NCBI GenBank assembly: GCA_050084515.1
Contig: CM114271.1
Span: forward strand, 3,472,001 to 3,536,000
DNA from: Blasia pusilla
Lineage: Eukaryota
Direction of reading: 5' to 3'
Length of the DNA stretch: 64,000 bases
The first letter of the stretch is position 1. Each line of letters opens with the position of its first letter. This document shows, one piece after another, positions 2,337-27,467 of the stretch. The notes below the pieces were generated by a model. The model made no database searches. It had not been told where the DNA came from and saw only the letters and a program-made list of their open reading frames with translations. Position numbers and translations under genes: made by a program.

Positions 2337-3016
2337 AGATGGTTGATGTCCTCATCAACGCAAACTTTATGAATGTTAAGTTTTGGGAAGCCGACCCCTT
2401 AACACTGAATCGCGTTCTGGTAGCTAACCCGCAATTCCTCTTTTGGCTTAAGTCTTAGGTTGTCGCTTGCAGCACTTAGACTTATTAGCTTCTTCTTTCC
2501 GATGAGCCTAGACTAGTTCTGCTGAACTAATCTAACTATCAAAATATGCTCACTGAGTCTGCAACCTAACACTTCACTCACTATTTGTAAACAACCGCCT
2601 GTCTACCTAGCCAACTCGTACTATTTTTGGGTCACTTGTACTCCATCTAGGCGCGTCACTAAGTTCAGTCATGCAACATGAATGAGATCACCACAAACCC
2701 CAAGACAGACTCATCTGCCCCGCCGACGTTAGGGCGAGCTCAAATGCTAGTACTTCAACACTTGGTCCTGATCTAGATGCCTTATCTGAATACAAGCTCT
2801 CACCTTAAATACTCATTGTTTGGTCTCCTTGACTTACATCCTAAGCATATGAAGAACTACCCATTGCCTTGCACAAACCAAACTCAAAATTACAATACAA
2901 GCATCGAATCTCCAAATCCATGTCTTCTTTATTGCAACAACTAAACATTTCTAGTTATAACGGGTTATCGGCCCAAGCTTTCCGGTCACAAGTTATGTCC
3001 ATTGCTTCACCATGTA

Positions 3017-3120
3017 CTAACGCACGTGCCTTTCTTGCATCCATCTGAAGTCACGCAATGCTTCTTGCGCATGTTCTAGATCCGCCTCCGCAATCCAAGT
3101 CGCCTCTTTCACATGATAGC
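3017..3120 (-). pseudogene. C-terminal half of the integrase chromodomain, truncated by the element starting at 3121
   Basis: (G)YHVKEATWIAEADLEHAQEALRDF matches the chromodomain pattern GY...ExTW.pE..L..a.e.l..F. It sits at the pol 3' end, upstream of the PPT and LTR. Confidence 0.75.
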
Positions 3121-3465
3121 TGTCATGACCATACGGATTATGTCGTAGAGTATGGTGTGCTGGTAGAGGCCATTCCTTATGTAGGACCGTAGTGGCTTGG
3201 TAGAGATGCGGTTCCATCCATAGGGTTGGGGGTTACTCACTTGGGGGTGACTTTCCCAGTAGGGCCCGCTCTTAGGTTGGAGGATATAAGGTGGCTTGCC
3301 CTCAAAGAACAGTCAGTTCTTTGAGTTGAGCTATGCGTTGGGAGTTAGCCTTGGTAGTGAGTAGAGCTCTTGGCTATGGTGTTTCCCGCAAGCTTTGACC
3401 TAGATTCTCCCATCGTGGAGTGGATTTGGCTCGATTGTATGTGATTGTAAACGTGTTTTATGACA
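3121..3465 (+). repeat. Putative 5' LTR (345 bp) of the DNMT-Gypsy element
   Basis: Begins tgtcatga exactly at the break in the chromodomain and ends ttatgaca (imperfect terminal inverted repeat, TG..CA). Contains TATAA at 3285-3289 and Inr-like TCAGTT at 3313-3318. No second copy in the window to confirm the bounds. Confidence 0.65.
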
Positions 3466-5088
3466 GTAGGTCTTTCACGGATTTCACTCAAAGAACTGGA
3501 GTAGATCGATGGTAGCTTCGATTGTAGATCAGTAGGATCTGGTTAGGGCTGATTGTGTACTCAGCCGTGGATGTTCGTGGCTTGTGGCCTATGTTGGAGG
3601 TGTGAATCTGATGAGCGGTTGGTTGGGAAAGAAGCGCCTTGCTGAGAGCTTTCCAACGCGCTGTAGATCGCCGGATTTCGTCAAGGGAGTTGGAAGTTAT
3701 CAAGCATTGAAGATTCTGGTCGTGTTCGACAGTTTTCTGATGTGGAGAGCTTGGAGTGCGGAAGCTCTGTTGAAGTTCATCCAGATCGGGTGAGAGGTTC
3801 CTATTGCTACTTGTATTGTGATCTCATGTAAAGCTATCTGCTCGATTCCGTGGAGCGTTGCGGATTTCTGCGTGCATGAAACTTGGCGGAAGCGCTGTCG
3901 GATTTGCGCTTCTAGAGGTGTATGGACAGCAAGTTTGTCTGATTTTTAGCTCGGAGTACGGAGCTTGGTTGTAGCTGAGTTTTTGTGGGGAGATAGCTAT
4001 GGTGGTCAGTTGAATTCTGATCGAAATAGATTTGATTTCGGTCACGTATTTGTGAAGTAATTTCTGATCGAAATTTCGCGGACTAGCTCAAGGTCTGGCT
4101 ATGGTGGACAGCGGATCGGAGGGGCTGGTTGGTTGGTGACTCGTTCAAATTTGGAGACGCCTATCCCGTTGGGGGCGCCTTGGTTGGACCTCTCTCCATA
4201 GCGAAGCATGGCGAAGCGTGGCGAACGGGGCATGTCTCGAGCATTTCTCGGCGTTTCGAGGCAACTCGAGGCAACTCGTGGTAGCTCGGGGCAAGTGGGC
4301 GTGAGAGGCGGAGTAAGGAGCAAGGAGCAAGCAAGCAAGCTTGCTTGCTTGCTTGGGCGTGAGGCAATTTTTGCAGGATTTAGGATTTGAGTTTTGCATA
4401 AGTGGTCACCCATCTTTGGGCTATTCTGCCTGGAGGACGCTTAACTGCTGAGTTCTTAACTATGCCCGGTGTCTGTTGTTGTAGCTCATTTGGTGCTGTT
4501 CGGAGAGGTGTTAGGCACTTTATGCATCTTAGGTTTTTGGTTGATGTACCTCTAGCGCATAGTACGGTGTAGCCTCTCCATGCAGGTGATATTTTCAGGT
4601 GGTGCGTTCGACTAGCACGTCATCGACCCGCGGCGGAGTAGCTATTGCATTAGAATTATGTGGTGGGTTTTGTGGATTCAGAGGGCACCACGTTTGGTGG
4701 ATTGTGTTACCTTGATTTCCATTTGCGATTGGAGGGTTGTCGTTGGATTTCCTGTGTTTGGATCCCCTCCATTGTGCTTCTTGCTTGCGCGCCCATTGTT
4801 AGGGTTGACGCTGATTTCCAGAGTAGTGTTACTCCTGTGTGCTACCGGTAGTGAGGCTGGAGGGATGACGAGTAGATTGTGGGAGACTTCTTGTGGTGAT
4901 GACAAGTTAGGTTGCCTACACCCATAGCTAGTAGAGCTAGAATAGTATAGCAACATCGACGTCACTTGGTAATTTGGTGGTGGTGCAGCATCGGCGTTGG
5001 TCATCACGGAGTTGTCGGGTGGTCTGGTTGGGGACCGTGGTGCAGACAGTGGTGGTTTCACACAAAGTGGATTTAGGTATCGCTACCT

Positions 5089-6437
5089 TTGCCACTTCCG
5101 ACGGTTGATGAAGAGGAGGACGAGGGTGTTCCAAACACCGAGTCTTCTACGTTGTTATCGAGTGTTGCAGCTCCATTGATTTGGGATATGGACGGTGGAT
5201 ATGGGGCCATGAAGGGCCCACGACGATACTCGGGTGCAGTGGGTACCATTGAGTTGGAGGACTTCATGCAGGAGTTTGATACGTGGTGTGATATGCGATG
5301 ATGTATGAACGCCACGTTGTTTACACCCTTCTTGGCTTGGAAGGGTTGTTTCAAAGACTTGGAAGGACCACCCATGGATGATTACCATGAGTTTAGGAAG
5401 GACCATGTTCTTTGAGATTGAGGCATGGAGACAATATTGGTCTCCAGGCTATGTGTCTATCACCCATGGTGGTATTGGTAGTAGTGCTCCTACTATGCGA
5501 GCCAGCCCGACGTTGAGTGGTACGAGTACGAGCCGGAGTGGGGGTACCAGTGGAGGTACTAGTGCCCCACCATCGTTTCGCCCGGTTGCAGAGTTCTTCA
5601 AGAGGTTGAAGAAGAACTATCAAGGAGTGAAGACAGAGAAGTTGAGGAATCTTCAGGACTTTGAGCGAAAGACTGGTGAGAGTCTTTGTGAGGCATACAC
5701 GCAGCGTATCGACGATTGATTTCAGATTACCAGGGTGTGAGTGAGGATCGGCGAGTCCGTTTTGGTACGGGATCTTGGGGCAGAGATTTGCGCCGAGGGT
5801 ACGTGATGCTACTCTTATGAGTGATGATTCACCCACATTGACCCATGTGTTTGCTTTATCTGAGAAGATTGAGCTTAACATGGTGAAGGAGAGAGTGGTG
5901 ACATCCGCATTCAGTAGGGATACAACTACTTCTTCTCGTGTTCAGCCGCCCACCTCACAGTCTCGTAGTAGTGGTGGTGGTAGTAGTAGTGGGAGTCGTG
6001 GGGGGTACACGCGACCTCAGTCAAGTCCTAGAGGGACATTTGTGCAGAGACCATTGCCTTCATTTGCTGCCCCGCAGCAAGGAGAGTTATGTTGGACATG
6101 TGGAGGTGATCATGTTAGGAAGTTTTGTCCCCAAGAGGATGGGAGACGGACTTTGGAGGATGGGCCTCAGTCGGCCCCAACTCAGTGTGATCATTGTGGG
6201 AGACTAGGTCATCCTCCAGAGCGTTGCTTTGATCTTCATCCACAGTTGAGATCAGGCCGTGGCCGTGGTGGAGTAGCTCCGAGAGGCCGAGGTGGTAGAG
6301 GTGGTAGGGGTGGTAGAGGTGGACCAGTGGTTGGAGAGCCTACGGTGGCTACCCCCACCTCTACGACAAGTCGCCTATGGCTGCCGAGATTGAGCAGTTG
6401 GAGCAGAGTTGGCTACTATGGTGGTATCCAAAGATAG
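5089..6437 (+). pseudogene. gag: gag of the DNMT-Gypsy element (frameshifted)
   Basis: Capsid-like segments (PRRYSG..ELEDFMQEFDTWCD; KLRNLQDFERKTGESLCEAY), zinc knuckles CWTCGGDHVRKFC and CDHCGRLGHPPERC, and an RGG-rich tail. Confidence 0.8.
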
Positions 6438-7104
6438 ATCAGGTTCGGGAGCAGGGCTTCCACCTCTTATGGAGGGGATGATCTCTCTTATATGGCGAAA
6501 GTGCAAAGACAAAAGTTGAGGCATCACTGCGATTTGAGAGGAGCCACTGAGCGTCGAGCCACGTGGTGCTCTTGTGGAGTTGGACCCACAGAGGGGTGAG
6601 GTGGGGAGGCGAGCTAGGCTTCCCGATTATTCTTGTTGTCCGAGGTGCTTAGGACTCCATCCATGGTTCCCACGCAGCCTATTGAGCCAAAGTGGGGATC
6701 GAGGCATCTACATCGCGTGTAGTAGACACGGATGCAAAGATCAATGCAGATTGTGCGGATGGCAACTTCAAAGTGTTGGGATCCCCATTGTTTTCGCCAC
6801 GGAGTCGATGGCTTTAGGAGTTGACTTAGCTCTCAGATTTGATTAGCGACCACATTGTGTGAACGTGGGGTATTCTTGCTATACGTGTTGAGGTGGATGA
6901 GGGTGTTGCGGTGGAGCGACCCTCTATGTCGAGTAGCATTGAGTACCGGTGCTACTTGGCGGCAAAGAAAGCGGCGAAGATGGATGCATTACCGGCCCGC
7001 CAGCCATTGATCGTGAGAGGCTTACACCTGGTGTATGTATGTTGGACAACCGAGTGGGATCTTCTGATTGGTGAGTCCTACTGGGGGAGGTGTATAGACC
7101 GGAT

Positions 7105-7365
7105 AGAGTCTTGTTAGACTTTGGTGCCCAACCTTTGATGTTGGGAAAGCGGCATGTATTGGTTTGGGTATTCGGAGGTCGAGCTTGAGCCTTGCCCATT
7201 CGATTCAAACATCACTTGGAGGAGCCAATGATAGGTCTCAATTCATGACACGGGAGAAGTTTTTCTGCAGTTGAGACTAGATCATGCGGCCCGATAGCTC
7301 CCGGTTGGGAGTATCTCATGTAGTCACATCAGCCGAGTCGTATGATGTACTAGTTGGAGGAGCAA
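7105..7365 (+). pseudogene. Aspartic protease remnant
   Basis: RVLLDFGAQPLMLG (D-S/T-G motif, plausibly TCT>TTT) and a downstream SYDVLVGG motif, in the expected position after gag. Confidence 0.65.
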
Positions 7366-7826
7366 AGATTGTACCCGATGGGGTTTCAGATGGATTCTTT
7401 GGGTGAGACAGCGTCTTATAGACCAGGTTGGCATCCGAGGATGGACGTATGAGCCAAGTTCTGTGAGATTTATTTCGGGGCTCAACCAGAGGGTCTTCCC
7501 CAAATGGTGTTAGCATCTGTGGCTGGTTTTAGTGGAGTAGTCACTTGGCCAGGAGACTTTTTGGAGGGTAATGTTTCTGCTATGGATTCTCCTGCGCATG
7601 AGGAGGAAGAGGAGGTCCCTATTTTTGCAGCAGTGGCATCCTCATCGTTGGATGTGCCACTTTGGAGTTCACGCGATGCACTACGGCAGGAGGCTGATCG
7701 CCTAGTGCAGGAGGCTTGGTGTGGTTATACCTCACGAGGAAGAGGAGGCCCCAGGCGGACTCTATTTCTGGCCGATTGTTATCCCCTTTGGATACTACAC
7801 CTATTGTATGGCAGTATCCGCCGGAG

Positions 7827-8775
7827 GGCATTTGTGTGTTAGATCTCTTTGGTGGGATTAGCACTGGTTTGGCTGCAGTGTTGCAGGCCGGTATTCCTGT
7901 GCGGAGATACGTGTATGTAGAGCGAGATGAGACGGCCCAGAGAGTCTCATCCCGACATATTGGTCAGTTGATGCGGAGATATCCTGAGTTGTTGCCGCCA
8001 TCAGCTATTCGTGGGTACCAGCGTGCTTTACCATCACACATTGCATTGTTGGGGGCGCAGGACCTTGAGAGAATTGGTCTTGTGGATTTGGTGATTGCTG
8101 GATGGCCATGTTAGGGTCATACACGTGCTGGTCGTGGTGAGGGATTACATGACCCTAGGTCTCGATTGTTTTGGGAGATGTTACGGGTGTTACGACATCT
8201 TCAGGTTCATCAAGCACGTGCTCTAGCTAACATTCTGGAGAATGTTCCATTGTTGGGTGACACTCGGACCCGGATGATGGCGAGTGTTCATGAGGTGCGC
8301 TCTTGGATTGGACCAGCGGTGTTGTTGGATGCAGCACGAGTTGGCTCGCGTGCACATCGTCCACGCTTGTGGTGGACAAACTTGTTGCCTAGGGAGGTTC
8401 TACGTCGAGCATATGATGCAGTGCAGCGGGATCCTCGCCTTACAGTGGATAGTATCTTGGATACTGGGCGACTTTCTCAAGTGGTGAGGATTATTGATCG
8501 GTCACCCATGGCAGTGGTGAACCGTGTGGGCCAGCCTAGGATGGCACTACCCACATTTGTGAGTTTTCCCGCGTCACATGCCTACGAGGAAGGTGGTCGG
8601 GGCTTGTATGGGATTCTCATGTGCGGCGATTGGTGGAGCCTAACGCTGATGAGAGAGAGCGTGCGATGGGATTTACTATTTGGCGTGTGGCGGTTGCTTC
8701 TATTTTCGAGGCTTCACGACGTCATGTGTTGGGTCAGGCCATGGACCTGAATTGTTTGACTTGGATTTTGAGTCT
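7827..8775 (+). pseudogene. DNMT3-like C5 cytosine DNA methyltransferase domain within pol (one stop, one frameshift)
   Basis: Motif I GICVLDLFGGISTGLAAVLQAGIPV; motif II YVYVERD; motif IV DLVIAGWPC*GHTRAG (catalytic PC at 8106-8111); LHDPRSRLFWEMLRVL; motif VI ILENVP; motif VIII RAHRPRLWWTNL; motifs IX/X ERERAMGF..SRRHVLGQAMD. Confidence 0.92.
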
Positions 8776-9149
8776 TGGTATGGCCGAGCAGCGTCGACTT
8801 CGGACTATGTCTGTGGGTCTTCCACCCCTTGTAATGAGCTCGATGGCTACCGGGACGGTAGAGGCATCGGCTGGGGGCGAGGAGAGTAGTATTTTGCATC
8901 CTTGGAGTAAATGGGATGTAATGGCTGGGCATGTGGAGTTGGTTGCTCATCTTTGGTGGAGGAGTTATTTGCTCAGATGATGATGTAGCTAAGGGTGTAT
9001 CATCTTGTGAGGGGGTTGCGTAGCAGCCAATGGCATCGTCCTCTCCCTCTAGTATGCCAGTGGAGGAGACTTGGGAGCCATTACTTGGGCCCAAGCTTAC
9101 GGGAGGTGAGAAACGACGCTTGACATAGTTCCTACGTGCTTATAGGAGT

Positions 9150-10500
9150 TGTTTTGCCTTTAGCATGAAGGAGTTGGGTTCTCTGGTTGGACCCGGTATA
9201 CGGATTGATTTGGCTAGTGATACGCCAATCTTCCGTCGTCCCTACCGATATAGTGATATGGAGAGGGATCTGATTCAGAGTAGGACGTTGGACCTTTTGG
9301 AGGCTGGATTAGTGGAGTTGTCGCATGGAGAGTATGCATCACCACATGTCATGCTGCTAAAAGGATATGCATGGCAACTACACGGATAGGCGGATGTGTG
9401 GAGATTACCGCCCTATCAATTGGCAAACCAAGGCCGATAGGTATGCCATGCCTACACTGATGAGATCTTTGATGTGATGGGACAGCAAAGATTTTCAGTA
9501 CTTTGGATCTTGAGGAGGATACCATCAATTGCCGATTCGGGAGAGTGACAAGGCCAAGACAAAGCATTTTGGGGTGTCAACTCTCATGGCAAGGATTGTT
9601 TGTACGGTGGAAATTCTTACCCTTTGGGTTGAAGAATGCACCTGCCGAGTTTCAAAGAGTGATGGACAGGATCCTAGCAGGGTTGGATTTTGTTCGGTGT
9701 TACATTGATGATATCTTGGTGTTCAGTAACACGGTGGAGGAGCATCAGATACATTTGCAGATGGTGTTTGAGGGGTTGAAAGCTCATGGTCTACGTTTGC
9801 ATCCGGAAAGTGTAAGTTCTTCCATGAGGATGTTGAGTACTTGGGTCATGTGATCTATCCAGGTGGTTTGGGAGTTCAGCAAGCAAAGGTGGAGGCTATT
9901 GCACTTATTCCGCGTCCGGTAGATGTGAGTAGAGTTCGAGCATTCATGGGATTGGCGAACTACTATCGGAGGTATGTGAAGGATTTAGTGCTATGGCAAA
10001 GCCTTTGAACCAATTGCTGAAATCAGATCAAGAGTGGCACCTGGGGAGATGATCGGAGAGAGAGCTTTTGTGGAGCTTAAGGCCAGTTGGTGGCGGCGCC
10101 TATCTTGAGGAGACCTATCAAAGGCGCCCATTTCAGATTACACACGATTGGAGTAGGTTGGGACTTGGAGCGGTGTTGACACAACATGATGATGAGCACA
10201 TGGAGTTTGTGGTGGCCTATGCAAGTCGTTCGAGTAATGCAAATGGAGTCGCTATAGTTCATATGAGGGAGAGTGCTTGGCAAGTAGTGTGGGTTGTGGC
10301 ACACTTTAGGTGTTACTTGTTTGGCACACAATTTACCCTTGTTCTTGCGATCACCGGCCGCTCAAGTGGTTGATGGAATCGGACAAGCTTACAGGAAGCT
10401 TGCACGATGGGCTCTTATCTTACAGGAGTATGACTTCCAGGTGGTACATAGACCTGGAGTTGCCAACCTTGATGCTGATGGGTTGAGTAGGAATCCATGT
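9150..10500 (+). pseudogene. pol: Reverse transcriptase and RNase H of the DNMT-Gypsy element
   Basis: PIFRRPYRYS, RMCGDYRPIN, LPFGLKNAPAEFQRVMD, RCYIDDILVFS, HDWSRLGLGAVL, VVAYASRS, ARWALILQEYDFQVVHRPGVANLDADGLSR. Confidence 0.93.
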
Positions 10501-10859
10501 ACTAGCCAAGAGGATACAACTGGGGCTAGATGGCATAGCGAGGTTGATGAGGAGATGGTGCCAGGTTGGCATGCATCCGCCTTTTTATGTTGGTTAGGGG
10601 TGGACTCTAGTATGGAGGACCACATGATATCTTACTCTAGTCAGAGGGTAGATGGCCAGCCTTCAGATTCTAAGGTTGGAGATGGTGGTACGGATCAGCG
10701 TGATATTCATGATGATGCGTTGGTGTTGGAGTTTCTACGGACCAGTAGGGTGCCACGCATAGTGAGTGCCAAGGAGCGAGACCGTGTTCTTCAACGTGCT
10801 AAGAGGTATCGATTGGAGGGAACACATATTCTCCACATGTGGGAGGATGGTAGAGTACG

Positions 10860-11940
10860 AGTAGTGCCACATTTGGCTCAGAGAGAGCGCATTGTGCGAC
10901 ATGCCCATGAGGAGTTGGGACATTTTGGGGTAAAGCATACGTATAGCTTACTCCTTGGCCAGTATTAATGGCGTGGCATGCATACTCAGGTGCAGCAGTT
11001 GGTGTCACGTTGTATGGTTTGTGACCGGGTGAGGGCATCATTTAATGCCCCTACACCACAATTACACCCCTTGCCTATTATGGGGTTGGGTTACCGTTGG
11101 AGTGTGGACTTTGCAGGACCTTTACCATTGATGCGTCATAATCGATATGTGTTGGTGATGGTTGAGCATTTTTCCAAGTGGATTGAGTTGGTGGCATTAC
11201 CTGACAAAGCTAGTGAGGAACGGCGTATGCGTTTGGATAGAGTGCTTAGTCATTTTGGTGCACCGGTGAAGTTGACCGACCAGTCTGAGTTTGTGGTGAG
11301 TTTCAGGTCTTGTGTGACAAGGCGTTGATTGATCATCGGACCACGTCTCGAGATCATCCGAGGCGGATGGTTTGGTGGCGTGTGGTTCAGGCGGTGAAGA
11401 GGGCATTGCGCAAGTATGGCCTCTGAAGGGCATCTTGAGACTAGGATATTCAGTTGCCATGGTTAGCCATGGGGTATAGGTTCGATCGCCAAGCATCCTT
11501 GGCATCTTTCTCACCTTATTTTTACATTATACGGCCGAGATCCGGACTTGCCAAAGACAAGAATTCGGGAGTCTAGTGAGGTGGTGGACCTTGATGACCC
11601 AGAGATGTGGATGAGGGTGTGTTCTCAGCGGGCGGAGCTCTTTCAGAGAGTTATGCCAACAACCTTTGAGAATCTTGCCATTGCTCAACACAGGGATACG
11701 TTGCGGTATGCAACCATTCGGGATGGAGGTTATCGACCATCGATTCGTAGGTTCCATGTGGGGGACTATGTCTATTTGCAGCAGATTGCCCCGACAACGT
11801 TGGATGTGACGGCATGCCGCACTATTTTACGAGTGCGTGAGGTGTTAGCTTCTGGAGTTCTCATGTTGGAGGGTCGTGATGGAGTTGTTTGGAAAGATCA
11901 TGTGCGTAATTGTGCGCCATGTCATCTTCCAAATGTGGAT
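10860..11940 (+). pseudogene. Integrase of the DNMT-Gypsy element
   Basis: HHCC zinc finger (HAHEELGHFG...CMVCDR), WSVDFAGPLP, YVLVMVEHFSKWIE, LTD core, and RFHVGDYVYL. Confidence 0.9.
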
Positions 11941-11979
11941 GGTACTGTTGACCCAAGCTTAGCCATGATACGTGCTAGC

Positions 11980-12126
11980 TTGAGGTGCATGTTGTGTGGG
12001 TCTGCTAGTAACGCATCCCGTATGTTGGTGTGTGATCGGTGTTCTAGGGGTTGGCACATGATGTGTTTGACTCCACGTTTGGATGTTGTTCCTACTGGAA
12101 GGTGGGTTTGTCCTCGATGTACTTAG
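11980..12126 (+). CDS. PHD finger (C4HC3) at the integrase C-terminus, intact
   Basis: RCMLCGSASNASRMLVCDRCSRGWHMMCLTPRLDVVPTGRWVCPRCT*, in frame with the integrase tail (ORF 11548-12126). Confidence 0.92.
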   Translation: MRCMLCGSASNASRMLVCDRCSRGWHMMCLTPRLDVVPTGRWVCPRCT

Positions 12127-13731
12127 GAGAGGTAGATGACTTGATTTTTGCATGATATGGATTACTGATGTGCGACTAACGATGGGGCAACCTAGCACCC
12201 GGCCTTCTGATTCGGGCACCCAAGAAGGTGTATAGCATGTAGTAGATGTATAGGGCTACCTGGGAGTTAGAGATGACACTGCTGCTACTGCCGCACCGGT
12301 CGTGACATGCCGCTGCCCACACTCGCCGTTGCTCCTCTGCTTGTCCTGGTTTCGGAGCACTGTGGATCTTCGCTTTTGATGGCGAGCAGGAAGGAAGATT
12401 CCCCAGCATGTGCGCTGTCCCCAACATGCGCTGCTGCTGGTGGGAGGAAGCGAGGAAGCACACAGGACGACGATCAATGTATCTCTCTCTCGGTCTGCCG
12501 ACTCTGTTCGTTTGTGTCGAGGTTGACTACCGTGACAACAGAGCGTTGTGACAACACGTGAAAGACCACTGTTGTGGCGTTACTGCGGCAGAGCGAAGAG
12601 AGAAAGAAAGAAAGAAAGAATTAAAACGCTCTACACGAGAGCGGGGAGATGTTAGTGGGGATGGATTCGAGGAGGACGGGGCCGTAGGAGTCATCACTTG
12701 CTCGCTCCGCATTCCTTCCTTCCTTCCTTCCTTCGCTCGCTCGCTCCGGCGTCCGCTAGATCTCCGGAGGATGGAGGAATGGAATGGAAGTAAAGTTGTT
12801 GTTTTTTCCTCTCTGGAATCCGGATCTCTCGCGGGTTACGGTGTACTCCTTGGACCTGGGAATCTCCCACGCGCGCAGTGACAAGAGGATGAGGGTCAGT
12901 TTACTGAGGCACTGGAAGTCCCACGCACGTCCAAGAGGCGAGCAGCGAATTCATCCGGAGAACTACGGGGGCGAATCATGGGGCAGCCAGGTGCCAGACA
13001 CGACATGGTGGTTCCGTTCCGAGAGCTCTCGAGAGTCGAGTGACATGAGGCGCAGGGTCAAATGCAAATGAATGGGAGAGCGTGGATTCATTCTAGAGAG
13101 AAGCAGAGATCACGCTGACGAGATTAGGTGGATCGATGGTGCAAGTCAAGAACCTGACTGTAGCAGCTACAGTCCGGATGGTTTTTTCAGGACTCCGCTA
13201 CAGTCAGGTCCATGACTTGCTCGAACACAGACAGGGCATACGATATCATGCGGGAAAACTCACGGCTTGGAGTGTCAACAATCGCTCCTGAGTAGTAGTA
13301 GTAGTAGTAGTAGTAAATAATAATAATAACCACCCGCCTGAGGAGGTTGATCAGTTCAGTTTTACTCTACTCTCTGGCTGGCTCTAGCACTGACAGACAG
13401 TCTTAGCTTTTCTCAAGTGAAAGCCGAAGAAGCCTTCTTCGGCGTCTCCATTCCGTTCCGGTCATCTTCGCTTCGCTTCTTCTTGGAGCGTCGGAGCGGG
13501 ACTCGCCGACATGTCTGCAGCACAGAAGAGGAAGGGGTCGTCGTTTATTTATTTATTCATTCATTATCGGAAGCTCCTCTCTGAGAGTCTGAGGGCGTAT
13601 CATACGCAAGAGACATTGCAAGTCCAGTCCAGTCCAGTGACTGGAGTCACTGCGATTGGCGACTAGCCCGCCAAGTCTTGAGTCTTGAGTCGTGACTCGT
13701 GAGTCGGGGGCATGGAATTTGTACGAATCCG

Positions 13732-13817
13732 GGTGTTGCGCCATTCAATAATGGTGTTTTGTCTCCTCTCATCAGGTGTTGCGCCATTCAATAATGGTGT
13801 TTTGTCTCCTCTCATCA
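13732..13817. repeat. Perfect 43-bp tandem duplication
   Basis: ggtgttgcgccattcaataatggtgttttgtctcctctcatca x2. Confidence 0.95.
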
Positions 13818-15552
13818 GAACCTCTTGTCGATGGCAGACGAGTCCCATGCGCCCAAGTAGCCTGTACCGCATTCACGTATGTTCGGGTATGCTGCGAGTA
13901 TACTAGTTGCCCATGAGATGGGGAGGTGGCTGCTGCTGCTAATGCCCCAGCTGGAGTCAGCAGTGATTCCTCCCTCCTGTTCACCATAGCCACCTTAGCT
14001 TCCGCTCTTTTCTTTTCCACTCTCTCAGGATAACTTCGAGAGTTCCGTCCCATTCTAGGCCTACACTGCAGTACTGCTCTGGATAACCCTAGAAATATGG
14101 GATGTTCGATGAATCAAAACATGAAAATAAAAAGCTAGCCACGTTTTCGAGTAGCTTAAGACCTAGTGCGGCAGATAGGACAATCATAGCCAGGCTTTCT
14201 TGCATTCTTCCATATCCATGACCGAGAGAGTTCCGTCTAAATCGAGACCTACTGCAGAGAGTCAGTCAGACAGTCAGTCAGTGCACTAGAGAACTCGCGA
14301 GACGCAGAATGTTCAACAAGTCCAAACACATTAGCCAGACCTCATTATCGAGTGCCTTCCGAGACGTCCGATTCATGTTCGGCTGCACCGCGAACGACGA
14401 GGACTCCTCTCTTCCTCGCGTCATTTCACTCTCTTATCGCAACTGCGAGCGTTCCCCGGTTCAAGGCGTGATGTAGCGTGCAAATGCAGGAAGCTGAAAT
14501 AAGCCGAAGTCTCGAGCACCGACACTTCCAATTCGAAGCATTTTTCCTACGGACTTGCATCGGAAGGAAACCCTAGGGAAGCACGATGTTCTCATCTGTC
14601 GCGTAAGTACCTGATTATTACTCCAGAAGTTGCTGCTCTCTGGGAAAACTGAAGTGTGTCAGATCAGCGCCACTGCAGCAAGTCCAGACAAGCATGTTCG
14701 TTCCGGCCTCGCTCCCTCGCTCGCTTTTACGGAGCTATTTCGTGCGCTGCACTGTGCTCGTCGTACTTGTCACATGTGTGTGTCACTCGATTCACATATT
14801 CATTCCAAATTCACGCGCAAAAGTTACTCACCCGCTCTCCTCCTGCTCCTCCTCCTCCTTACCATCTCCTCCATCTCTTTCTACCTGGCTCCTCCGCTCG
14901 CTCGTACATCGCATGACATCCGACGATGCTTTAGATTCGTCACCGTCTGACAACAAGTGCCCGTACGACCTTCATCTTTTACATGGCTTCCCTGTTGCAC
15001 GCACGACATGCTCGATTGATTCCCTGTCTAATCTACACAGACGGCGCATGCGTCTTTGCCCGTAGTTGCTTAGACAATGTTGTCATCACCGTGTGGTCAA
15101 AACAGAAAGGGAGTCAATTTTGACTCGGGGCTTAGAAATGCTCCTCCAATGCCGAGAAACACCAAGGGAATCTAAAAGTCCACTGGAGCATCCATCCCAC
15201 ATCTTTTGCATGTTCCATGGAAGCAGCCAGTGAGTGGTTTTCTCTTTCGGTCAGTTTGTTTGTTTGTTTGTTGCTGTGTTGTTTTGTTTTGGGCGTTTGG
15301 TTGCTTTCAATCCGTCTGATCGATCGCGTTTGGGTCGCTTCGAATGTGTTTGCGATGACCTGATGCGATGGGGCTTTAGGATCGTGTTCTTGTGACGGGA
15401 AAGCCCTTCGCAAGCTTTAAAATCGTCCGTGGTCAAAACGTGTCACTCCTGCTCTCAGAAGCCATTGTGATGATGCTGAGAGGTGTCATGTTGTTGGAGC
15501 CGCCCCCCAAACACGAGAACATCTCGCTCGCTCGCCCCCGAACTCTTTCTTC

Positions 15553-15654
15553 CTCTCTCTCTCTCTCTATCTATCCAGCCTCTCCACGTGTCCTACCCTT
15601 CTCTCTCTCTCTCGCTCTCTATCTATCCAGCCTCTCCACGTGTCCTACCCTTCT
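15553..15654. repeat. ~50-bp tandem duplication of a (CT)n plus CACGTG unit
   Basis: ctctctatctatccagcctctccacgtgtcctacccttctc occurs twice in tandem. Confidence 0.85.
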
Positions 15655-15884
15655 CAAAGTATCGCACAGTGGTTTCCTTTCCCGTATAGATCGCGGGGAG
15701 TCTTGCGAGTTCCGAGTCGTGACTGGGCGTATGGTTCGCGCACCGTAGGCCCGCTCAGAAACCGGTGCGGCCCCTTTGAGAGGGGAAGAAAGTTTCACAC
15801 ATACTAGAAGAAGATTGGGTGAGTACACGTGGGTAGCAAGTATGAACCGAAAACTGCAGTTGTATATGTAGAGGAGGAAATGAA

Positions 15885-18760
15885 TATAAACTTTAATAGA
15901 AGCTTGGATGGAAAACCCGTCGGGATACAAACGAGGGGGGCATAGAGAGCCAAAAAACCCATCGGGCCAAAACCGGCCTTGAAGAGAGAGGAGGGGGCCT
16001 CCCCCCCACCGACCAAAATCACTAAGAACAGAGACAATATCAACAACACCTAGAGAACTATGGCTACTACTAAGTGGGCCTCTAGCATTGGCGTCTCCAA
16101 TTGCATGAGCCCGTCGCAAAAGCCCATTTGTTTGGGCACGCTGCAAAGCTATGGAGACCCGTTGCCTACAAGAAAGTATCGCAGTGGCTAAGGCAACCCA
16201 TTTCTCGACTAGAGATGATGGGGGAAATCCGTAAGGAACGAGTCAAACCTCTCCCCCATAGCCCCGTACATCTCAATGACTAGGGGGATAAATCCATGTC
16301 CGTCTAGAAGTCGACTATAAATGTGGGTCTTCTTTACCGCCGCCGCCGCTCCTTGTAGCAATCTCCCTTGTGCCACCACTTGGGCTCGCATCGCCTCACG
16401 TGTAGGATCCGTCACTACAACATCCACTACCACCACCTCAGACTCTCGTGTCATGTAGAGATCAACACGGATAAGTGAATCCTGCATGGAGTTGTGCCTC
16501 TCTGTGCACATGGAAGCCACTCTCCCGAGAAATAGGGAACATAATATCCCCCACTGCATCGTGAATGGCTATCCTAATTGGACACTGTGCCAAGTGCACA
16601 CCAAGTGGATCTAGACTCCGGCGACACTCGCAATGTTTCAAACCAATAACCGATGGTTGGGGGAGACCCAGTCAGAACCGCAACGCTGTAGAGTAGGTAA
16701 GTGGTGCGATGCGAAAAGCCACGATGAGGGGATGAGCCCCTATCCATGAGCCTTCCCCCTTTCCGGAGCAAGAGCGAATACGCGCCCTAATCTCCATGGG
16801 GATATTCCCATCCGACATAGTAGCTCTGAACAATGCATCAAAGTGGGCTTCCATCAAAGAAGATTGGAGCCCAGACTGTCCGGAGCTAACTAGGGAAGAG
16901 AAAGTGGGAAGAACTGCCCTAGCCTCAACAAGAAGGGAGTCTCTACAAGCTCTGAGTGAAGACTGAAGTGGGAAAAGACCACCCTCGACCTGGGAAACGT
17001 ATTATAAAAGTAGAGGTCTATCCCTAACCAAAAATTGGGAGCAAAGGAGGGATGCTACACTGGCCCAACTCCCTAAAAAAGCCAAAGATGCCACTAACTG
17101 AGTCGCTATAAGACCTACTTCACCAAAGGCAATCGGCCAAGAAGCCTGTCTACGAGCTAACTCCCCCGCGGGGCACTCTAAGGAGTCGGGTCCTAGAAGA
17201 TCCCCAAATGCCTGCATGATCTTTCTATCAAAGGATCTATACAAGGAAGAAATATGGCTAGACGCGCACACGATTATACACAGATAACCAGGTCTACGAG
17301 CGAAACATGACGAGAGGATGCCGTAGGCTACTTGAGGGTCACCAATCCTCGTGAGATCGTGGATGTGGAAAAGATCCTCGGTCAGAGACGCCGCCACAAA
17401 ACTCGATACAAAGTCTTGGCTCTCGAGTGGGACTCCCAAGATGCGAAGCCCTCCAATAGGTGTCAAAAAACTGTTGGGTAAATGAATATCAGCCGGCAAG
17501 CTTGATGGAGACCAAGCCTTGCACTTTCCCACCTTCATTGCGAGGCCGACACATGCCAAATATGTTGAAAAGTGCTGAAATGCAGAATAACCAAGTCTCC
17601 AGGGCCAACAATATGAGTATCATCTGCCAACAAAGGGAAAATGCAACCTAGGAAAGGCTCCACCGTAGAAAGAACCGCTCGATAATGAGCCAAAGCAAAC
17701 AATGCACCACCCAAGGGATCACCTTGACAAGTCCCGGTAGCAGACTCCAAAACCGTGACCTCCTCCTCGAACCCACCGTGGCAAAAATAGAGGGCCAAAG
17801 GGGCCCCATAGAAAGCCTGCACGAAGGGAATCAGGCTCACAATAGGATCCCTACATCTCTCAACTCCAAGAAGATAGCTACCCGAGACACTGAGTTGAAG
17901 GCGTTCTCCACATCAACTTGGAGAACCACCCACTCAAGATGTATATCCAGACAAGCCCTCAAACCTAAGGCTACAGTCTCACAACCAGCTAGTGTGGCAA
18001 CTCTGAACTGGTGCAGACTTAGATGTGACTGGAAAGCCTCACGGAATTGCAAAGCGATAGTGCGACTCACCAACCGCAAGAGCGCCTCACCTATGGCGAT
18101 TGGACGGATCCCTCCACCCTCCTTCGACAACGCCAAAAGTTGCCCCGCCCCCAATACTTGGGCCACTATTGTTGGCAATCTCCCTTGAGCTAGGTGAGAG
18201 GTAACCTAAAGCAACTCGGAAAAGCCGCTAGCAGAGTCCTGGGGGGGAAAGAAATCACGAAGGTGTTCGTACATCATACCGGACAAGCCTCCGGCTGCTA
18301 TCCTAGGGGAACGCCCGAGTGCCCGTGCAAAGAGGGACAGGTCTAGGCATAAAGCCATGCTAGGATGGAAGTCACGTACAAAAGTTGGAATGTCAACTGC
18401 TGGATGAGGATGTAGCCTCCGGAGGGCGTCGATGGTAAGAGCGGAAGGAGGAGCCATGTCCATAGGGCGGAGCGCACGAGTCGCTCGCAAGTGCTCCCCA
18501 CCTCGTCCAAGTGTCCTACATCGTTGCAACGTGATTGCTACAAGATCATCCGCTGGGAAACCAAGTGAAGTTCTACCTCTACCATATGCCACGAACTCGC
18601 TCTGCAGAGACTCCCAATCGCCTCCTTGAAAGCGCCGCAATCGGGCCACAACCTCTCTATGGCCAGCCTTCCCTCCCCGGGTATAACGAAGACACCATTG
18701 TGGAAGGAGAAGTAGTAGATACCATGAGAGCTCATCGAGGATCAAGTGCGATCCGAGAAG
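15885..18760 (-). mobile_element. CRE-like non-LTR retrotransposon (RT plus restriction-like endonuclease), 5'-truncated and decayed; copy 1
   Basis: GIRPIAIGEALLRLV, VLQVDVENAFNSVSR, QGDPLGGALFAL, LADDTHIVG, LRILGVPL, and C-terminal RVDLY..VVVDVVVTDP..K...Y..FIPLVIEMYGAMG. The ~200-bp 3' UTR is shared with 35390-35590. Confidence 0.85.
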
Positions 18761-23028: not shown

Positions 23029-26000
23029 AAATCCTTGGTGAGCGTAAACTTGGGGTCGTGTAAGATCTGGACGTTTGAGAAGGAACTCAAGAGACGAGGA
23101 GGAGATCTGAGAAAGCAAGGACTTGCAAATGGTGTCAAAGGGCAAAGAACCAAGGAAGCCGTGAGTCAAATCAAAAAATCCGAGAGACGAATCAATGACC
23201 GATCGTGAGCCAGAGGAGGAGATAACGACTCCCAAAGTGCCGAGTCCCAAACGTGAGGATGTCCCAAACGCAAATCTTTCCACGGGGCCTTTGGCTTCAA
23301 AGTCAAAGGACGCGGCCTTTTATATCCAAATGATGGATTTGATGAAGGTGACAGCGGACTAGATGGCCCAACAGAGCAAGACAAGGTGACTGTAGCGGTC
23401 ACTTTTTTAGAACTCAAGTCGAATGGAGCCTCTAGTTCCGACAAGAAGCTTTGTAAGGCAAATTTTCCAACGCCATTCACAAGAATGGGGCGTTCTAAAA
23501 AAGTGAGCGAGTTTCTAACGGAACTCAAACTTTACTTCGAAGCGCAAAGGGCAGAGGACCAAGACAAAGTGACTGTAGCGGTCACGTTTATGAAAGATCA
23601 CGCTCTCCACTGGTGGACGGCTCACCACAAAGAATATCTGGGCCATGTAAGAACTTGGAGTTGGGAAGAGTTCAAGGGGATGATTGGTTATTGATTCACT
23701 CTAGAATATCAGGAGTATCACGATGGCATGGAGTTTGTGAGGTTGCGCCAAAGCGGATCCCTTCGCGCTTATGTGCGAGAGTTCAATGCACAAATGAGCT
23801 CACTTTCCACATATGAGTTTACAAAGAAGGTGATCTTCTTAAGTGGACTCAAGCTGAGTGCCAAAAAGGCCATCTTTTGTATGCCTCACATTCCAGAGTC
23901 GTGCGTGGAGCTTCTGAGGCTAGCAAAGCGGATAGGGGACGATGAAGTCCAAAACCAAAAACCCTCTGAGCCAATTTTTTTTTCTTAGTTACCAAAAAGC
24001 AAAGGGGCATCCGAGAGCGTTTGGAATGGGGGTGAGCACGACCACGGATGGTCTCTTGCCCTAGCAGCGAAACGAGTGGAAGTCAACGCGAAGCCAAGAG
24101 GGTCGTCGTTCCCGAAGTCAAAAAACGCCAAAGTGATTTGCTACGATTATGGTGAACCCACGCATATGGCTAAGGAATGTGTGAGGCCCAAGGTGAGTAA
24201 ACTGAGTATGATTGTGTTTGCTGCTAAGCACTTATCAGCAGGAGATCTAGATACATCTCTCCAAGTCACCAAGAGAACTCCCATTTTTTTTTACCTAGGA
24301 TCCAAGATTGCTGATTGCAATGCGATGTTGCTCGTTGATACAGGTGCTTCGCACTCATTCTTGAGCCCGAGAATCGTGAAGACGTTGGGATTGCCAACCA
24401 CTAAGAAGGATGAACCCAATAGGGTAGGATTCGCCGGAGGAAAATCCCACCAGACCTGAGAATTGGTTTTAGGACTAGTTGTGGGATACGGAGTATTCGA
24501 GTTGAAGGAGAATTTCTCAGTTTGCGACATGGATGGAATCGATGGAGTCTTGGTGAACACATTCTTGGATGCGTATGAGATGGAACTAAGGCAAAGACCT
24601 TTGAGGTTGAGCATCTTGGTTAACAGCTAACGGACGGACGTCAGATTGGTTCATGAGGTTCCTAGAAAGACAGAGTTGGTGAACGCCATCATGAGGATGA
24701 GTTTGACCGAGTTAGAGGAAGGATTCCTTTGCTTGATGAGACAAGTAGAGGATGATGCAAGCCCAAGATGCAAAGATCAAAACTCAATTTCAAGGGGAAT
24801 CCCTTAAATACTCAAGAGAGTTGTGAAAGAATTTGGAGATGTGTTGACTAAGGAGCTTCCGACTAAGTTGCCACCACATAGGGCGGTTGATCATAAGATA
24901 GAGGTGATACCTGGATCTCAACCACCTTCAAAGGCGCCATATAGGTTGAATCAAGAAGAACTTGTTGAGTTGAAGAAATAGTTGGGTGAACTCCTAGAAA
25001 GAGGTTACATCCAAACTAACAAGTCACCTTATGGAGAGCCCATTCTCTTTGTGAAGAAGAAGGATGGAAAGTTGAGACTCCGTGTTGATTAGGGGGCGCT
25101 AAATAAAGTGATGTTAAGGAACAACTATCTTCTTTCGAGGATGGATGACCTCTTTGATCAATTTTTAGGTGCCAAATATTTCAGCCGGATTGATATGAAA
25201 TCAAGATATTATCAGATTTGGATTGCCGAAGCGGATGTAGAGAAAACTGTGTGTAGGATGAGATACGGTTCGTTCGAGTTTGTAGTAATGCCTTTCGGTC
25301 TTTGTAATGCCCCTCCGACGTTCACCACTTTGATGAACTCCATCTTTCATAAGGAGACGGATGATTTTGTGATCATCTACATAGATGACATACTCATCTA
25401 TTCGAAAAAAATAGAGGAGCACGCTAGACATTTGAAGACGGTGTTTGAGAAACTCAAGGCGAACAAAATGTATGCCAATGCGGACAAGAGTGAGTTCGGT
25501 TTGACGAAGATCAAGTTCTTGGGGCATGTGGTTAGTGCAGATGGAGTGAGTCCAGATATGGAGAAGGTAAGCCTGATTGTCGAATGGGAACCGCCTTCCA
25601 CCGTGAAGGGGATGAGGAGGTTCATCGGAGCGCTCCTGTTTTACCGGACATACGTGAGGAACTTTTCGAGAATAGTGAAACCTCTCATAGATTGGACCAC
25701 CAAGTTTGCAACACAAAATGGACCAAGGAATTGGATAAAGCGTTCAATCGAGTCAAGGAGATCCTCTCGCAGGAACTAGTTTTGAAGCTACCGGAGTTCG
25801 ACCAACCATTCGAGGTGCACATTGATGCTAGTGATTTCGCAATTGCAAGAATGTTGGTGCAAAAAGGGAAACCTGTAGCATACAAGAGCAAGAAGCTTAA
25901 CGACACCGAAAGGAGATGGTCCACTTATGAGAAAGAGTTGTTCACGGTGGTTCATTGCTTGAGGAAGTGACGCCACTATTTGGGACTTCACAAGACTCGA

Positions 26001-26632
26001 GTATTCATCGATAACATATTTCTCAAGTATTTTGAGATCCACAATCACGTAACACCAAAGCAATTGCAATGGCATGATACCTTGGTGTTGACGAATGTGG
26101 AGCTAATCCATAAGTCGGGGAAAGACAATGTCATTCTAGATGGGTTAAGTCGCAGGGATGAGCATATGCCATCGACGACACAAGTATCGAGAGCAATGTT
26201 CCCTAATGAAACTAACCTGGAAAGAAGGATTCGTGAAGGATACATGAAGGATACGCAGGCAAGTGAGTACCTTGGGAAGTTGAAACGGGGTGAGAAGGTG
26301 GCCAATCTAAGTTTGAGGCACGGCTTGCTAAGGTTTAAGCAGAGCAGGATCTATGTGGGCCAAGGCAAACTACGGACCAAAGTGTTTGTGGAATGTCATG
26401 ATGGACCTTTGGCATGAAACAAAGGGGAGAAATCCACTCTTAATATTTTGGCCAAGAGGTTCTTCTGGCCCAACATGAAGGAAGATGTTGCTCAATATGT
26501 GAAGACCTGCGTGACCTGTCAGGCGAACAGAGTTTCTTATGCGAAGAAGCAAGGCTTCCTTCGTCCTTTTCCGATCCGAGAGGGACCCTTGCAAAGCATT
26601 AGCATGGATTTCATTATGAGTCTTCTGGAATC

Positions 26633-27467
26633 TGAAGGATACAACGCTATACTTGTGATAGTTGATCGGTTTAGCAAGTTGGGGAGGTTTGTGCCAACGA
26701 GAGATTCTGCGATGGCCTACACGACTTCCCGACTATTCGTGGATGGTTAGTGGCGAGCTCATGGATTGCCTAGAAGCATTGTGTCCGATTGAGATCCAAA
26801 TTTTACCAGTGCCTTTTTGAAACATCTATTCAATTAAAATTTGAAGGATACAACCCTATACTTGTGATAGTTGATTGGTTTAGCAAGTTGGGGAGGTTTG
26901 TGCGGACAAGAGATTCTACGACGGCCTACACGACTTGTCGACTGTTCTTGGATGGTTGGTGGCAAGCTCATGGATTGCCTAGAAGCATTGTGTTTGATCG
27001 AGATCCAAATTTTACTAGTGCCTTTTGGAAAAATCTATTCAGTTAAAATTTGAGGGATACGACGCCATACTTGTGATAGTTGATCGGTTTAGCACGTTGG
27101 GGAGGTTTGTGCCAACGAGAGATCCTACGACGGCCTATACAACTTCTCGACTGTTCTTGGATGGTTGGTGGCAAGCTCATAGATTTCCTAGAAGCATTGT
27201 GTCCGATCGAGATCCAAATTTTACCACTGCCTTTTGGAAAAATCTATTCAGTTAAAATTTGAGGGATACAACGCTATACTTGTGATAGATGATCGGTTTA
27301 GCAAGTTGGGGAGGTTTGTGCCAACGAGAGATTCTGCGACGGCCTACACGACTTCTTGACTATTCTTGGATGGTTGGTGGCGAGCTCATGGATTGCCTAG
27401 AAGCATTATGTCTGATCAATATCCGAAGTTTACGAGTGCCTTTTGGAAACATCTATTCAGTTAAAAT
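26633..27467 (+). repeat. 4 x 209-bp tandem array derived from the integrase core
   Basis: Units start at 26633, 26842, 27051 and 27260. Each encodes EGYNAILVIVDRFSK...IVSDRDPNFTSAFWK. Confidence 0.95.

Follow-up and report, generated by a model that had tools for sequence, protein, structure and literature searches.

A Methyltransferase Domain in a Decayed Retrotransposon

The stretch of DNA considered here, 64,000 nucleotides from Blasia pusilla (GenBank assembly GCA_050084515.1, contig CM114271.1, positions 3,472,001 to 3,536,000 of the forward strand), is referred to below as the window and is numbered from its first letter. It contains the remains of a Ty3/Gypsy retrotransposon in which a cytosine methyltransferase domain, predicted to be of the DNMT3 type, lies between the protease and the reverse transcriptase. 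We consider it very probable that this is a decayed, 3′-truncated Gypsy copy occupying 3108-12272 on the + strand, and that it belongs to a family whose DNMT3 module is kept by selection within the layout gag, protease (PR), DNMT, stop codon, reverse transcriptase (RT), RNase H, integrase (INT) and PHD finger. The window itself shows this succession, beginning with a gag that carries CCHC knuckles, and the order is that of Ty3/Gypsy elements (Table 1; handles beginning with L denote loci and those beginning with P denote proteins).

Table 1. Features of the retrotransposon copy, in window coordinates
Feature	Position	Strand	Basis or remark
5′ long terminal repeat (LTR) remnant	3108-3497	+	start well supported, end approximate; matches direct repeats flanking relatives
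Long leader, LTR to start of gag	3498-5187	+	only the last part, from 4999, alignable with relatives
gag-like region, frameshifted	5188-6700	+	tblastn; residue 1 of Marchantia P0001 falls at 5188
Two CX2CX4HX4C zinc knuckles	6090-6128, 6186-6227	+	read from translation
Degraded aspartic protease region	6988-7431	+	LLDFGA at 7111-7128; aligns with P0022 residues 648-797
Predicted DNMT3-type C5 cytosine methyltransferase domain	7803-8790	+	PF00145; tblastn with the domain of Calypogeia P0004 covers 7803-8606 and 8600-8788
Motif I, LDLFGGISTG	7839-7868	+	frame 7698-8750
Motif II, YVERD	7914-7928	+	frame 7698-8750
Motif IV, GWPC	8100-8111	+	frame 7698-8750
Stop TAG inside motif IV, directly after GWPC (catalytic Cys)	8112-8114	+	
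Motif VI, ENV	8238-8246	+	frame 7698-8750
Motif VIII, HRPRLWWTNL	8355-8384	+	frame 7698-8750
Motif IX, EPNADERERAMGF (ends ERERAMGF)	8636-8674	+	second frame, 8540-8980
Motif X, RHVLGQAMD	8720-8746	+	second frame, 8540-8980
In-frame stop TAG CAG CCA, candidate leaky stop	9021-9029	+	conserved DNMT/RT junction
Reverse transcriptase and RNase H, several frames	9066-10402	+	Pfam, tblastn
Integrase (H2C2 zinc finger and rve core)	10396-11519	+	Pfam, tblastn with the second open reading frame of L029
PHD finger, integrase C-terminus	11986-12120	+	PF00628, E 4.6e-11, 43 bits, cut-off 24
Last base common with the family	12272	+	alignments to eight relatives stop at 12271 or 12272

The first of the two frames that hold the methyltransferase motifs is open but for one TAG, and comparison with relatives by tblastn places at about 8597-8606 the frameshift that splits motifs I-VIII from motifs IX and X. 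When that first frame is read with an X at its stop, it matches the PF00145 profile with 33.4 bits (E 4.2e-8), the cut-off being 22; the unjoined pieces of the window reach 15.8 bits, under the cut-off, and the relatives score 35-51 bits. The C5 methyltransferase motifs align across 23 relatives, and in the window and its relatives alike they run in linear order from I to X, with no circular permutation. Judged by its sequence, this is a C5 cytosine methyltransferase domain to a degree that exceeds chance resemblance. An earlier note on this DNA had described ordered methyltransferase motifs on the + strand at 7827-8775, with motifs I-VIII sharing one frame broken by a single stop; all of them were found in that place and arrangement, and the PF00145 profile that the note had named as a check exceeds its cut-off once the stop is read through. 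The note had also placed the domain between a protease and an RT on the same strand, which for the RT is confirmed by PF00078 and for the protease holds through homology only.

Affinity to the DNMT3 Enzymes

A profile, A1, was built from an alignment of ten family DNMT domains taken from database proteins, and its matches to the chains of solved structures fall in a clear order. DNMT3A comes first (E 1.1e-24, 90 bits), followed by DNMT3C (E 2.8e-22, 82 bits) and DNMT3B (E 4.1e-22, 82 bits), then by chain 4onj, which we take to be tobacco DRM (E 1.5e-11, 47 bits), DRM2 (E 5.7e-8, 35 bits), the bacterial enzymes HaeIII and HhaI (E about 1e-7, about 35 bits) and DNMT2 (E about 2e-5, about 26 bits); no DNMT1 chain is among the 55 sequences listed for this search. 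Calypogeia protein P0004, used by itself against solved structures, finds DNMT3A at 8.4e-11. The DRM chains align with positions 7-138 of A1 only, its N-terminal third, and do so with their own C-terminal part. DRM enzymes have a circularly permuted motif order, and the limited match fits that order.

Structure comparison points the same way. An AlphaFold model of the P0004 domain (mean predicted local distance difference test, pLDDT, 86.5; predicted template modelling score, pTM, 0.89) was searched with Foldseek, and all of the rows shown are DNMT3A, DNMT3B or DNMT3C (best E 1.8e-18, TM score by target 0.80), and in a structure search of the ESM Atlas the clusters ranked first are chordate DNMT3A. 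In animal DNMT3A and DNMT3B the catalytic domain is preceded by PWWP and/or ADD readers, and Pfam found neither in the window or its relatives. This does not exclude kinship with DNMT3, because some DNMT3s are described as having no identifiable companion domains (PMC12344493). By score ranking and modelled fold, then, the window domain is of the DNMT3 type, and the DNMT3-like character proposed for it earlier is borne out by the A1 ranking and the Foldseek rows together.

Distribution of the Family and Its Domain Orders

The window domain, used as a query, matched 38 longer proteins. The best are hypothetical proteins of Marchantia polymorpha at 78% identity, for which P0001 represents 18 member sequences; proteins of Calypogeia fissa, Sphagnum troendelagicum and S. 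fallax come next, and more distant ones come from Closterium. The Marchantia, Calypogeia and Sphagnum relatives are 65-78% identical to the window domain and are annotated as hypothetical proteins. The earlier note had set such elements outside the standard land-plant Gypsy lineages, which needs correcting: proteins of these three genera carry the family. Profile A1 retrieved 167 proteins in a word-index search, and when run against the whole protein library with no word index it retrieved 16,513 at E≤1e-3, 2,922 at E≤1e-10 and 535 at E≤1e-30, these counts being of representatives of clusters at 50% identity, many of them polyproteins of 1,500-3,456 residues. Among the best 120-150 A1 matches listed there is no cellular DNMT; all are element-borne. 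In metagenomes, 93 stretches encode relatives, and the DNA of 80 loci was compared. Named carriers include Scenedesmus sp. PABB004 (as a pol), Closterium strains NIES-53, NIES-54 and NIES-68, and Haematococcus lacustris; no protein with a Klebsormidium name is among the matches listed in three homologue searches, one of which listed 120 of 167.

Domain orders were counted in 288 proteins that have the DNMT domain. The most frequent composite order is RT-DNMT-INT (105 proteins), with RT-DNMT in 26 and DNMT-INT in 38, and the domain stands alone in 99; the order of the window lineage is represented by DNMT-RT in 12 proteins and DNMT-RT-INT in seven, and a single protein has RT-INT-DNMT. A FastTree phylogeny was computed from 199 domains (198 left after thinning 243 near-full-length rows, plus the window; unrooted, with local supports). 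In it the window is placed first with Marchantia (support 92), Calypogeia coming next (94, 100), and all ten DNMT-before-RT rows fall into one group of 36 rows (support 99) that holds no RT-before-DNMT row. The distribution argues that the DNMT is a regular module of a Ty3/Gypsy element family and not a one-off capture. As a side matter, P0034, an RT-RNase H-DNMT-INT-PHD polyprotein of 1974 residues, is filed under the name of a bacterial metagenome-assembled genome (Minisyncoccia); most likely it comes from a eukaryotic (algal) contig that was wrongly binned.

Selection and Catalytic Residues

The ratio of nonsynonymous to synonymous substitution rates (dN/dS) was estimated by the Nei-Gojobori method and was obtained for the DNMT domain in nine of 11 pairs; in three comparisons, two of the DNMT domain and one of the second open reading frame (ORF2), saturation prevented a ratio. 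Over the nine pairs the DNMT domain has a dN/dS of 0.07-0.20. Between the window and five close loci the values are 0.07-0.16, with a dS of 0.81-0.91 for four of them and of 3.96, which is saturated, against L014; the window against L036 gives 0.196 at a dS of 2.38, near saturation; L006 against L014 gives 0.170 at a dS of 1.73; and the least saturated pair, L029 against L030 (dS 0.26), gives 0.120. A last pair, L029 against L036, allows the modules to be set side by side: 0.112 for the DNMT, 0.124 for gag-PR and 0.056 for ORF2, which encodes RT to INT. These ratios indicate that the DNMT domain is under purifying selection in the family, and the neutral evolution that the earlier note had set against a dN/dS below 1 is not borne out.

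Most of the 199 domains retain the catalytic Cys in motif IV, EN in motif VI and HR.R in motif VIII, together with motifs IX and X. One change recurs in the wider family and is absent from the window's own lineage, a replacement by Glu of the Pro that precedes the catalytic Cys in motif IV, seen as GWECQD in 66 of the 137 rows with the order RT..DNMT..INT and as GWECQG in six of the ten rows with the DNMT before the RT. Among C5 methyltransferases such a replacement is unusual, and it might alter activity.

A Conserved Stop Codon between the DNMT and the RT

The organisation of the family is best seen in relatives with open frames. In L029, a first open reading frame (ORF1) of 1369 amino acids with PR and DNMT is followed by a TAG and, in the same frame, by an ORF2 of 1047 amino acids with RT, RNase H, INT and PHD finger, and L036 and L014 have the same layout, with long open frames on both sides of the stop. 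Where the junction is present, in 40 loci, 36 have a TAG (28) or TAA (8) whose next two codons are CAA or CAG and YYN; five of the 40, and the window, fit UAG-CAR-YYA in full. Eight database proteins of about 1250-1376 residues (P0001, P0003, P0008 and P0022-26) end exactly at this junction. The sequence UAG_CAR_YYA is the tobamovirus-type (type I) leaky stop motif of plant RNA viruses (Firth and Brierley 2012, PMC3542737).

In this arrangement, the DNMT of the window lineage forms the end of ORF1 (gag-PR-DNMT) and lies on the Gag side of the stop, and programmed readthrough of the stop codon at the DNMT/RT junction is suggested. The phrase used in the earlier note, a methyltransferase "built into the Pol", needs refining: in intact relatives the domain is C-terminal in a gag-PR-DNMT frame, and RT, RNase H, INT and PHD finger stand behind a stop. 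The question raised there of whether the DNMT is in frame with PR and RT in intact relatives has a double answer, since in L029 all three share one frame and a conserved stop nevertheless precedes the RT. L014, otherwise open, has a second in-frame TAG (3192-3194) shortly upstream of the DNMT domain; its context, TAG AGT GGT, is unlike that of the junction stop, and it may be either a recent mutation or another stop under regulation.

Transcription

Three runs of raw RNA-seq reads under the same species label as the best-matching DNA run were aligned on positions 3000-13000 of the window at a likeness of at least 85%. RNA coverage is unbroken over 3000-12351, including the whole leader at 3498-5187, at a depth of about 8-200 reads, and is zero from there on; DNA read coverage is likewise zero after 12351, and loose read ends are found at 3108 and 12272. 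Members of the family are transcribed, then, in RNA-seq of the same species label. More than 90% of the RNA reads have their first mate on the − strand, and by the usual convention for stranded libraries the transcripts would be sense to the element. Some RNA reads join 12252 to 3108, and reads from paralogues stop matching before 3108; together with the loose ends, these joins mark the borders between LTR and internal region in the family and confirm the absence of the 3′ LTR from the window copy.

Two further joints were observed. RNA reads that skip 990 bases (10663-11654), with the same nine letters between the joined parts, number 16, 27 and 40 in the three runs, and their presence in all three suggests the transcription of internally deleted derivative copies. 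Another joint, 5273 to 11735, skips 6461 bases and is represented by 4-6 reads per run.

Layout and Decay of the Copy in the Window

Outside the methyltransferase, the coding regions differ in how well they can be recognised. The RT (9066-9853) matches PF00078 at E 1.9e-18 and has YIDD at 9701-9712, and the RNase H (9948-10343) matches RT_RNaseH_2 at 4.2e-14. The two integrase profiles remain below their curated cut-offs in the window (Integrase_H2C2, E 1.2e-4; rve, 8.8e-6) and are clear in the relatives, and a PHD finger occurs at the same position in L029 ORF2, P0033 and P0034. In gag, the zinc knuckles have a counterpart in ORF1 of the relative L014, which matches zf-CCHC at 1.2e-7. When five stretches of the window, including PR, the gag N-terminus and part of the RNase H, were searched with Pfam with X at stops, three gave no match and a fourth yielded nothing informative. 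The PR stretch has no Pfam match of its own; its support is homology to relatives that have weak PR matches, P0022 and L029 ORF1 matching Asp_protease_2 at the PR position at E 2e-4, which is below the cut-off.

At the 5′ end, window positions 3108-3133 and 3301-3497 match, in nucleotide alignment, the direct repeats that flank relatives. Such repeats measure 342 bp at 92% identity in L038 (1676-2017 against 10350-10691) and at least 307 bp at 94% in L006 (5886-6192 against 14633-14939). Terminal repeats within the window itself were found neither by a repeat search (seed 12, minimum 60) nor by blastn with word size 9 of 2500-5300 against 12000-17000, and no second copy of the 5′ LTR piece occurs anywhere in the window; as the piece is present upstream only, the 3′ LTR is missing. 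Identity to related contigs is about 77% at the nucleotide level along 4999-12272, the alignments with L006, L026, L038 and others all beginning at 4999. Followed by tblastn with the best guide proteins, the stretch from 5188 to 12120 shifts frame 14 times or more, and many of the high-scoring segment pairs (HSPs) hold stops. With a TAG in motif IV, this number of frame changes and no 3′ LTR, the window copy is dead; it is a long-dead relic of a Ty3/Gypsy element with a coding part at 5188-12120 and an LTR from about 3108.

Some compositional features accompany the copy. The coding strand of 5188-12126 is rich in G and T and poor in C (GC skew +0.25, AT skew −0.12), and open-frame relatives have the same strand bias, which makes it a family trait rather than a product of decay in the window copy. 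The observed/expected ratio of CpG is 0.55-0.70 across the coding part in the window, L006, L029 and L036, and 0.28 in L014. The leader includes a perfect palindrome of 28 bases made of GCAA/TTGC repeats (4326-4355), and downstream of the truncation point there is an exact tandem duplication of 44 bases (13732-13818).

Other Elements in the Window

The locus itself is ordinary, a dead and truncated copy in a repeat-rich region, and the G+C content of the window falls to 31-41% beyond about 36 kb. A second Gypsy-type element lies on the + strand at 24937-26825 and has no DNMT match; its RT matches PF00078 at E 5.3e-26 (25093-25779), and tblastn with the RT, RNase H and integrase of P0034 covers 24937-26789. 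A Copia-type element lies on the − strand at 44536-46557, with matches to RVT_2 (1.1e-26, 44536-45315) and to a retroviral SH3-like domain (3.9e-24, 46081-46557).

What the Methyltransferase Might Do

The mechanism that we propose starts from the position of the stop codon. In intact family members, one long ORF encodes Gag with its CCHC knuckles, the protease and the DNMT, and ends at a conserved UAG or UAA in a CAR-YYN context, with the RT-RNase H-INT-PHD part downstream in the same frame; readthrough of this candidate leaky stop would yield the downstream part. Lying upstream of the stop, the DNMT would be made along with Gag-PR and outnumber RT and integrase, Gag-PR-DNMT being the abundant product and RT-RNase H-INT-PHD the rare one. 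The DNMT could then travel with the particle or the pre-integration complex and methylate the new cDNA or the landing site, and the PHD finger would steer integration through the reading of histone tails. As to the substrate, methylation of the new cDNA of the element is the role that we put forward tentatively, as a possibility ahead of the others and short of a probable one.

A number of points weigh against the reading of the element and its layout given at the outset, and they touch different parts of it. The assignment to DNMT3 rests on score ranking and on the fold of relatives. Readthrough at the DNMT/RT junction is deduced from sequence, and the majority of junctions read CAA CCC, without the final A of CAR-YYA, with TAA in place of TAG in the eight loci mentioned above. 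Most of the close relatives are broken as well: a stop-free HSP over the P0004 domain, from residue 3 or earlier to residue 325 or later, was found in only two of the 80 loci (L006 and L014), by a P0004-based criterion that also drops the intact, more distant L029, L030 and L036. The limits of the LTR are approximate, given the shortness of the repeats in relatives (342 bp in L038). RNA reads that are at least 99% alike to the window make up only about 3% of the total in each run (165/5033, 137/4791 and 180/5395), which indicates that the RNA comes mostly from sister copies, and its sense orientation depends on the library convention. Finally, the Gypsy-borne DNMT of Klebsormidium gave no methylation when it was assayed in yeast, a result that its authors regard as inconclusive (PMC5890265).

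Methylation could also come after integration rather than before it. DNMT3s are de novo DNA methyltransferases, and a DNMT3-type enzyme delivered with the integrase-PHD complex could methylate DNA at or around the new insertion, thereby limiting its own copy number or making the insert resemble ordinary heterochromatin; this is the "mobile epigenetic writer" of the earlier note. Besides the type of the enzyme, the co-occurrence of DNMT and PHD finger in both domain orders speaks for this idea, which has been discussed for such elements (PMC5890265). We nevertheless hold it to be rather unlikely: in the window lineage the DNMT sits in the gag-PR frame upstream of the stop and unfused to the integrase, so that co-delivery with the integrase is not built in, and the methylome of Klebsormidium is reported as not unusual in the same paper.

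Position in the Gag-PR frame speaks for another role, in which the domain would methylate RNA, either the genomic RNA of the element or a tRNA primer, as part of RNA handling on the Gag side. DNMT2 does methylate RNA, and the A1 profile nonetheless scores DNMT3A, DNMT3B and DNMT3C 55-64 bits above DNMT2, while the fold matches are to DNA-bound DNMT3 structures, with a region between motifs VIII and IX aligned to theirs. Although RNA methylation was raised by the authors of the Symbiodinium work for a DNMT in the ORF1 of a long interspersed nuclear element (LINE), and would sit well with the negative yeast assay of DNA methylation by the Gypsy enzyme (PMC5890265), we think it improbable. More improbable again is a pseudo-enzyme in which the fold is kept for DNA binding or multimerisation; the Pro-to-Glu change before the catalytic Cys, which roughly half of the wider family shows (the GWECQD rows above), would suit such a role, but the window lineage keeps the S-adenosylmethionine (SAM) motif FGG, PCQ, ENV, the RxR of motif VIII and motifs IX and X, and selection on the domain is as strong as on gag-PR. 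A one-off capture, whether as a fragment of a host DNMT3 gene or as an assembly chimera unlinked to the biology of the element, has nothing for it beyond the broken state of the window copy and is rejected as next to impossible, given gag-PR-DNMT-RT at about 77% nucleotide identity in at least eight independent metagenome contigs, the recurrence of the arrangement in annotated proteins of three bryophyte genera and a dN/dS below 0.2; the test for such a capture that the earlier note had set out is decided against it by these relatives.

Beyond the single element, the data raise the prospect of one old Gypsy lineage of the green plants and algae, marked by a DNMT3 and an integrase PHD finger and present in chlorophytes (Scenedesmus, Haematococcus), Zygnematophyceae (Closterium), liverworts and mosses, and thus not specific to Klebsormidium. 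In the streptophyte branch, the DNMT would have moved from the gap between RNase H and INT to the end of the Gag-PR frame, before a tobamovirus-type leaky stop, and members would still be transcribed in a living land plant. We find this scenario plausible, if a little short of probable. If it is true, bryophyte genomes would harbour transposons that supply de novo cytosine methylation, and the methyltransferase would be as abundant as Gag.

Comparison with Known Systems

Retrotransposons that bear their own silencing enzyme are a recent and little-studied discovery, and the sole case in print from the plant lineage concerns a charophyte alga. The work that the earlier note had cited for Symbiodinium and Klebsormidium bears out what the note says of it. 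From Symbiodinium it reports DNMT-bearing elements of the DIRS and LINE types, and from Klebsormidium nitens KnitGypsy-Dnmt3, a Ty3/Gypsy element free of introns whose Pol includes a non-rearranged DNMT3, with many copies, a Ka/Ks below 0.2 and DIRS-like repeats in the arrangement A-coding-B-A-B (de Mendoza et al. 2018, PMC5890265). Later papers, PMC12344493 among them, name a "streptophyte" retrotransposon DNMT3 in the passages concerned, citing the 2018 work and adding no new case, and PHD fingers in retrotransposons are already known from the literature. No report of a bryophyte Gypsy element with a DNMT was found in the literature outside subscription journals and supplements, and the main text of PMC5890265 mentions Marchantia, liverwort, moss and PHD not once. 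The novelty supposed in the earlier note is accordingly reduced, the kind of element being in print for a streptophyte alga. A Gypsy-borne DNMT3 as such was published in 2018; what the present analysis adds is a transcribed family in bryophyte-grade land plants, along with the DNMT before a conserved candidate leaky stop, the constant PHD finger of the integrase and a large algal sister group with another domain order. The presence of the family in Marchantia, a genetically tractable model, offers a system for asking what a transposon gains from a DNMT3 of its own, and the placement of the stop and the constancy of the PHD finger give rise to concrete hypotheses on dosage and targeting.

Cellular DNMT3A, DNMT3B and DNMT3C (for example 6w89, 7v0e and 8tci) are the best matches in both sequence and fold; they have motif order I-X in common with the element domain, and alignment extends to residues in motifs I, IV, VI, VIII, IX and X. 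Identity is just 22-24%, however, motifs VIII and IX lie further apart in the element domain, and this domain, unlike the cellular enzymes, is part of a Gag-PR polyprotein. The leaky stop of the tobamovirus type is fitted fully by TAG CAG CCA in the window, whereas most relatives end the hexamer in C instead of A. The algal elements with the order RT-RNase H-DNMT-INT-PHD (Scenedesmus sp. PABB004, Haematococcus lacustris and metagenome contigs), of which we found no published description as Gypsy elements, have a homologous DNMT at 35-40% identity and a profile E below 1e-90, together with the same integrase PHD finger, but place the DNMT between RNase H and integrase, whereas the window lineage places it before the RT.

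SymbioDIRS-Dnmt3 likewise has a DNMT3-type domain in a retrotransposon polyprotein, one that carried out de novo CG methylation in yeast; it differs in that the element is of the DIRS type, has a tyrosine recombinase and lives in a dinoflagellate, and its authors regard it as an independent acquisition (PMC5890265). Closest of all is KnitGypsy-Dnmt3, which has in common with the window family a DNMT3 in a Gypsy polyprotein, a streptophyte host and purifying selection (below 0.2, against 0.07-0.20 here). Its host is Klebsormidium, whereas those of the window family are bryophyte-grade land plants (Marchantia, Calypogeia and Sphagnum); its repeats are DIRS-like, and in the window's relatives L038 and L006, on short or cut contigs, one simple pair of direct repeats was seen, the window copy being truncated; and the window family has a stop between DNMT and RT and a PHD finger in the integrase, neither of which the text describing KnitGypsy-Dnmt3 mentions.

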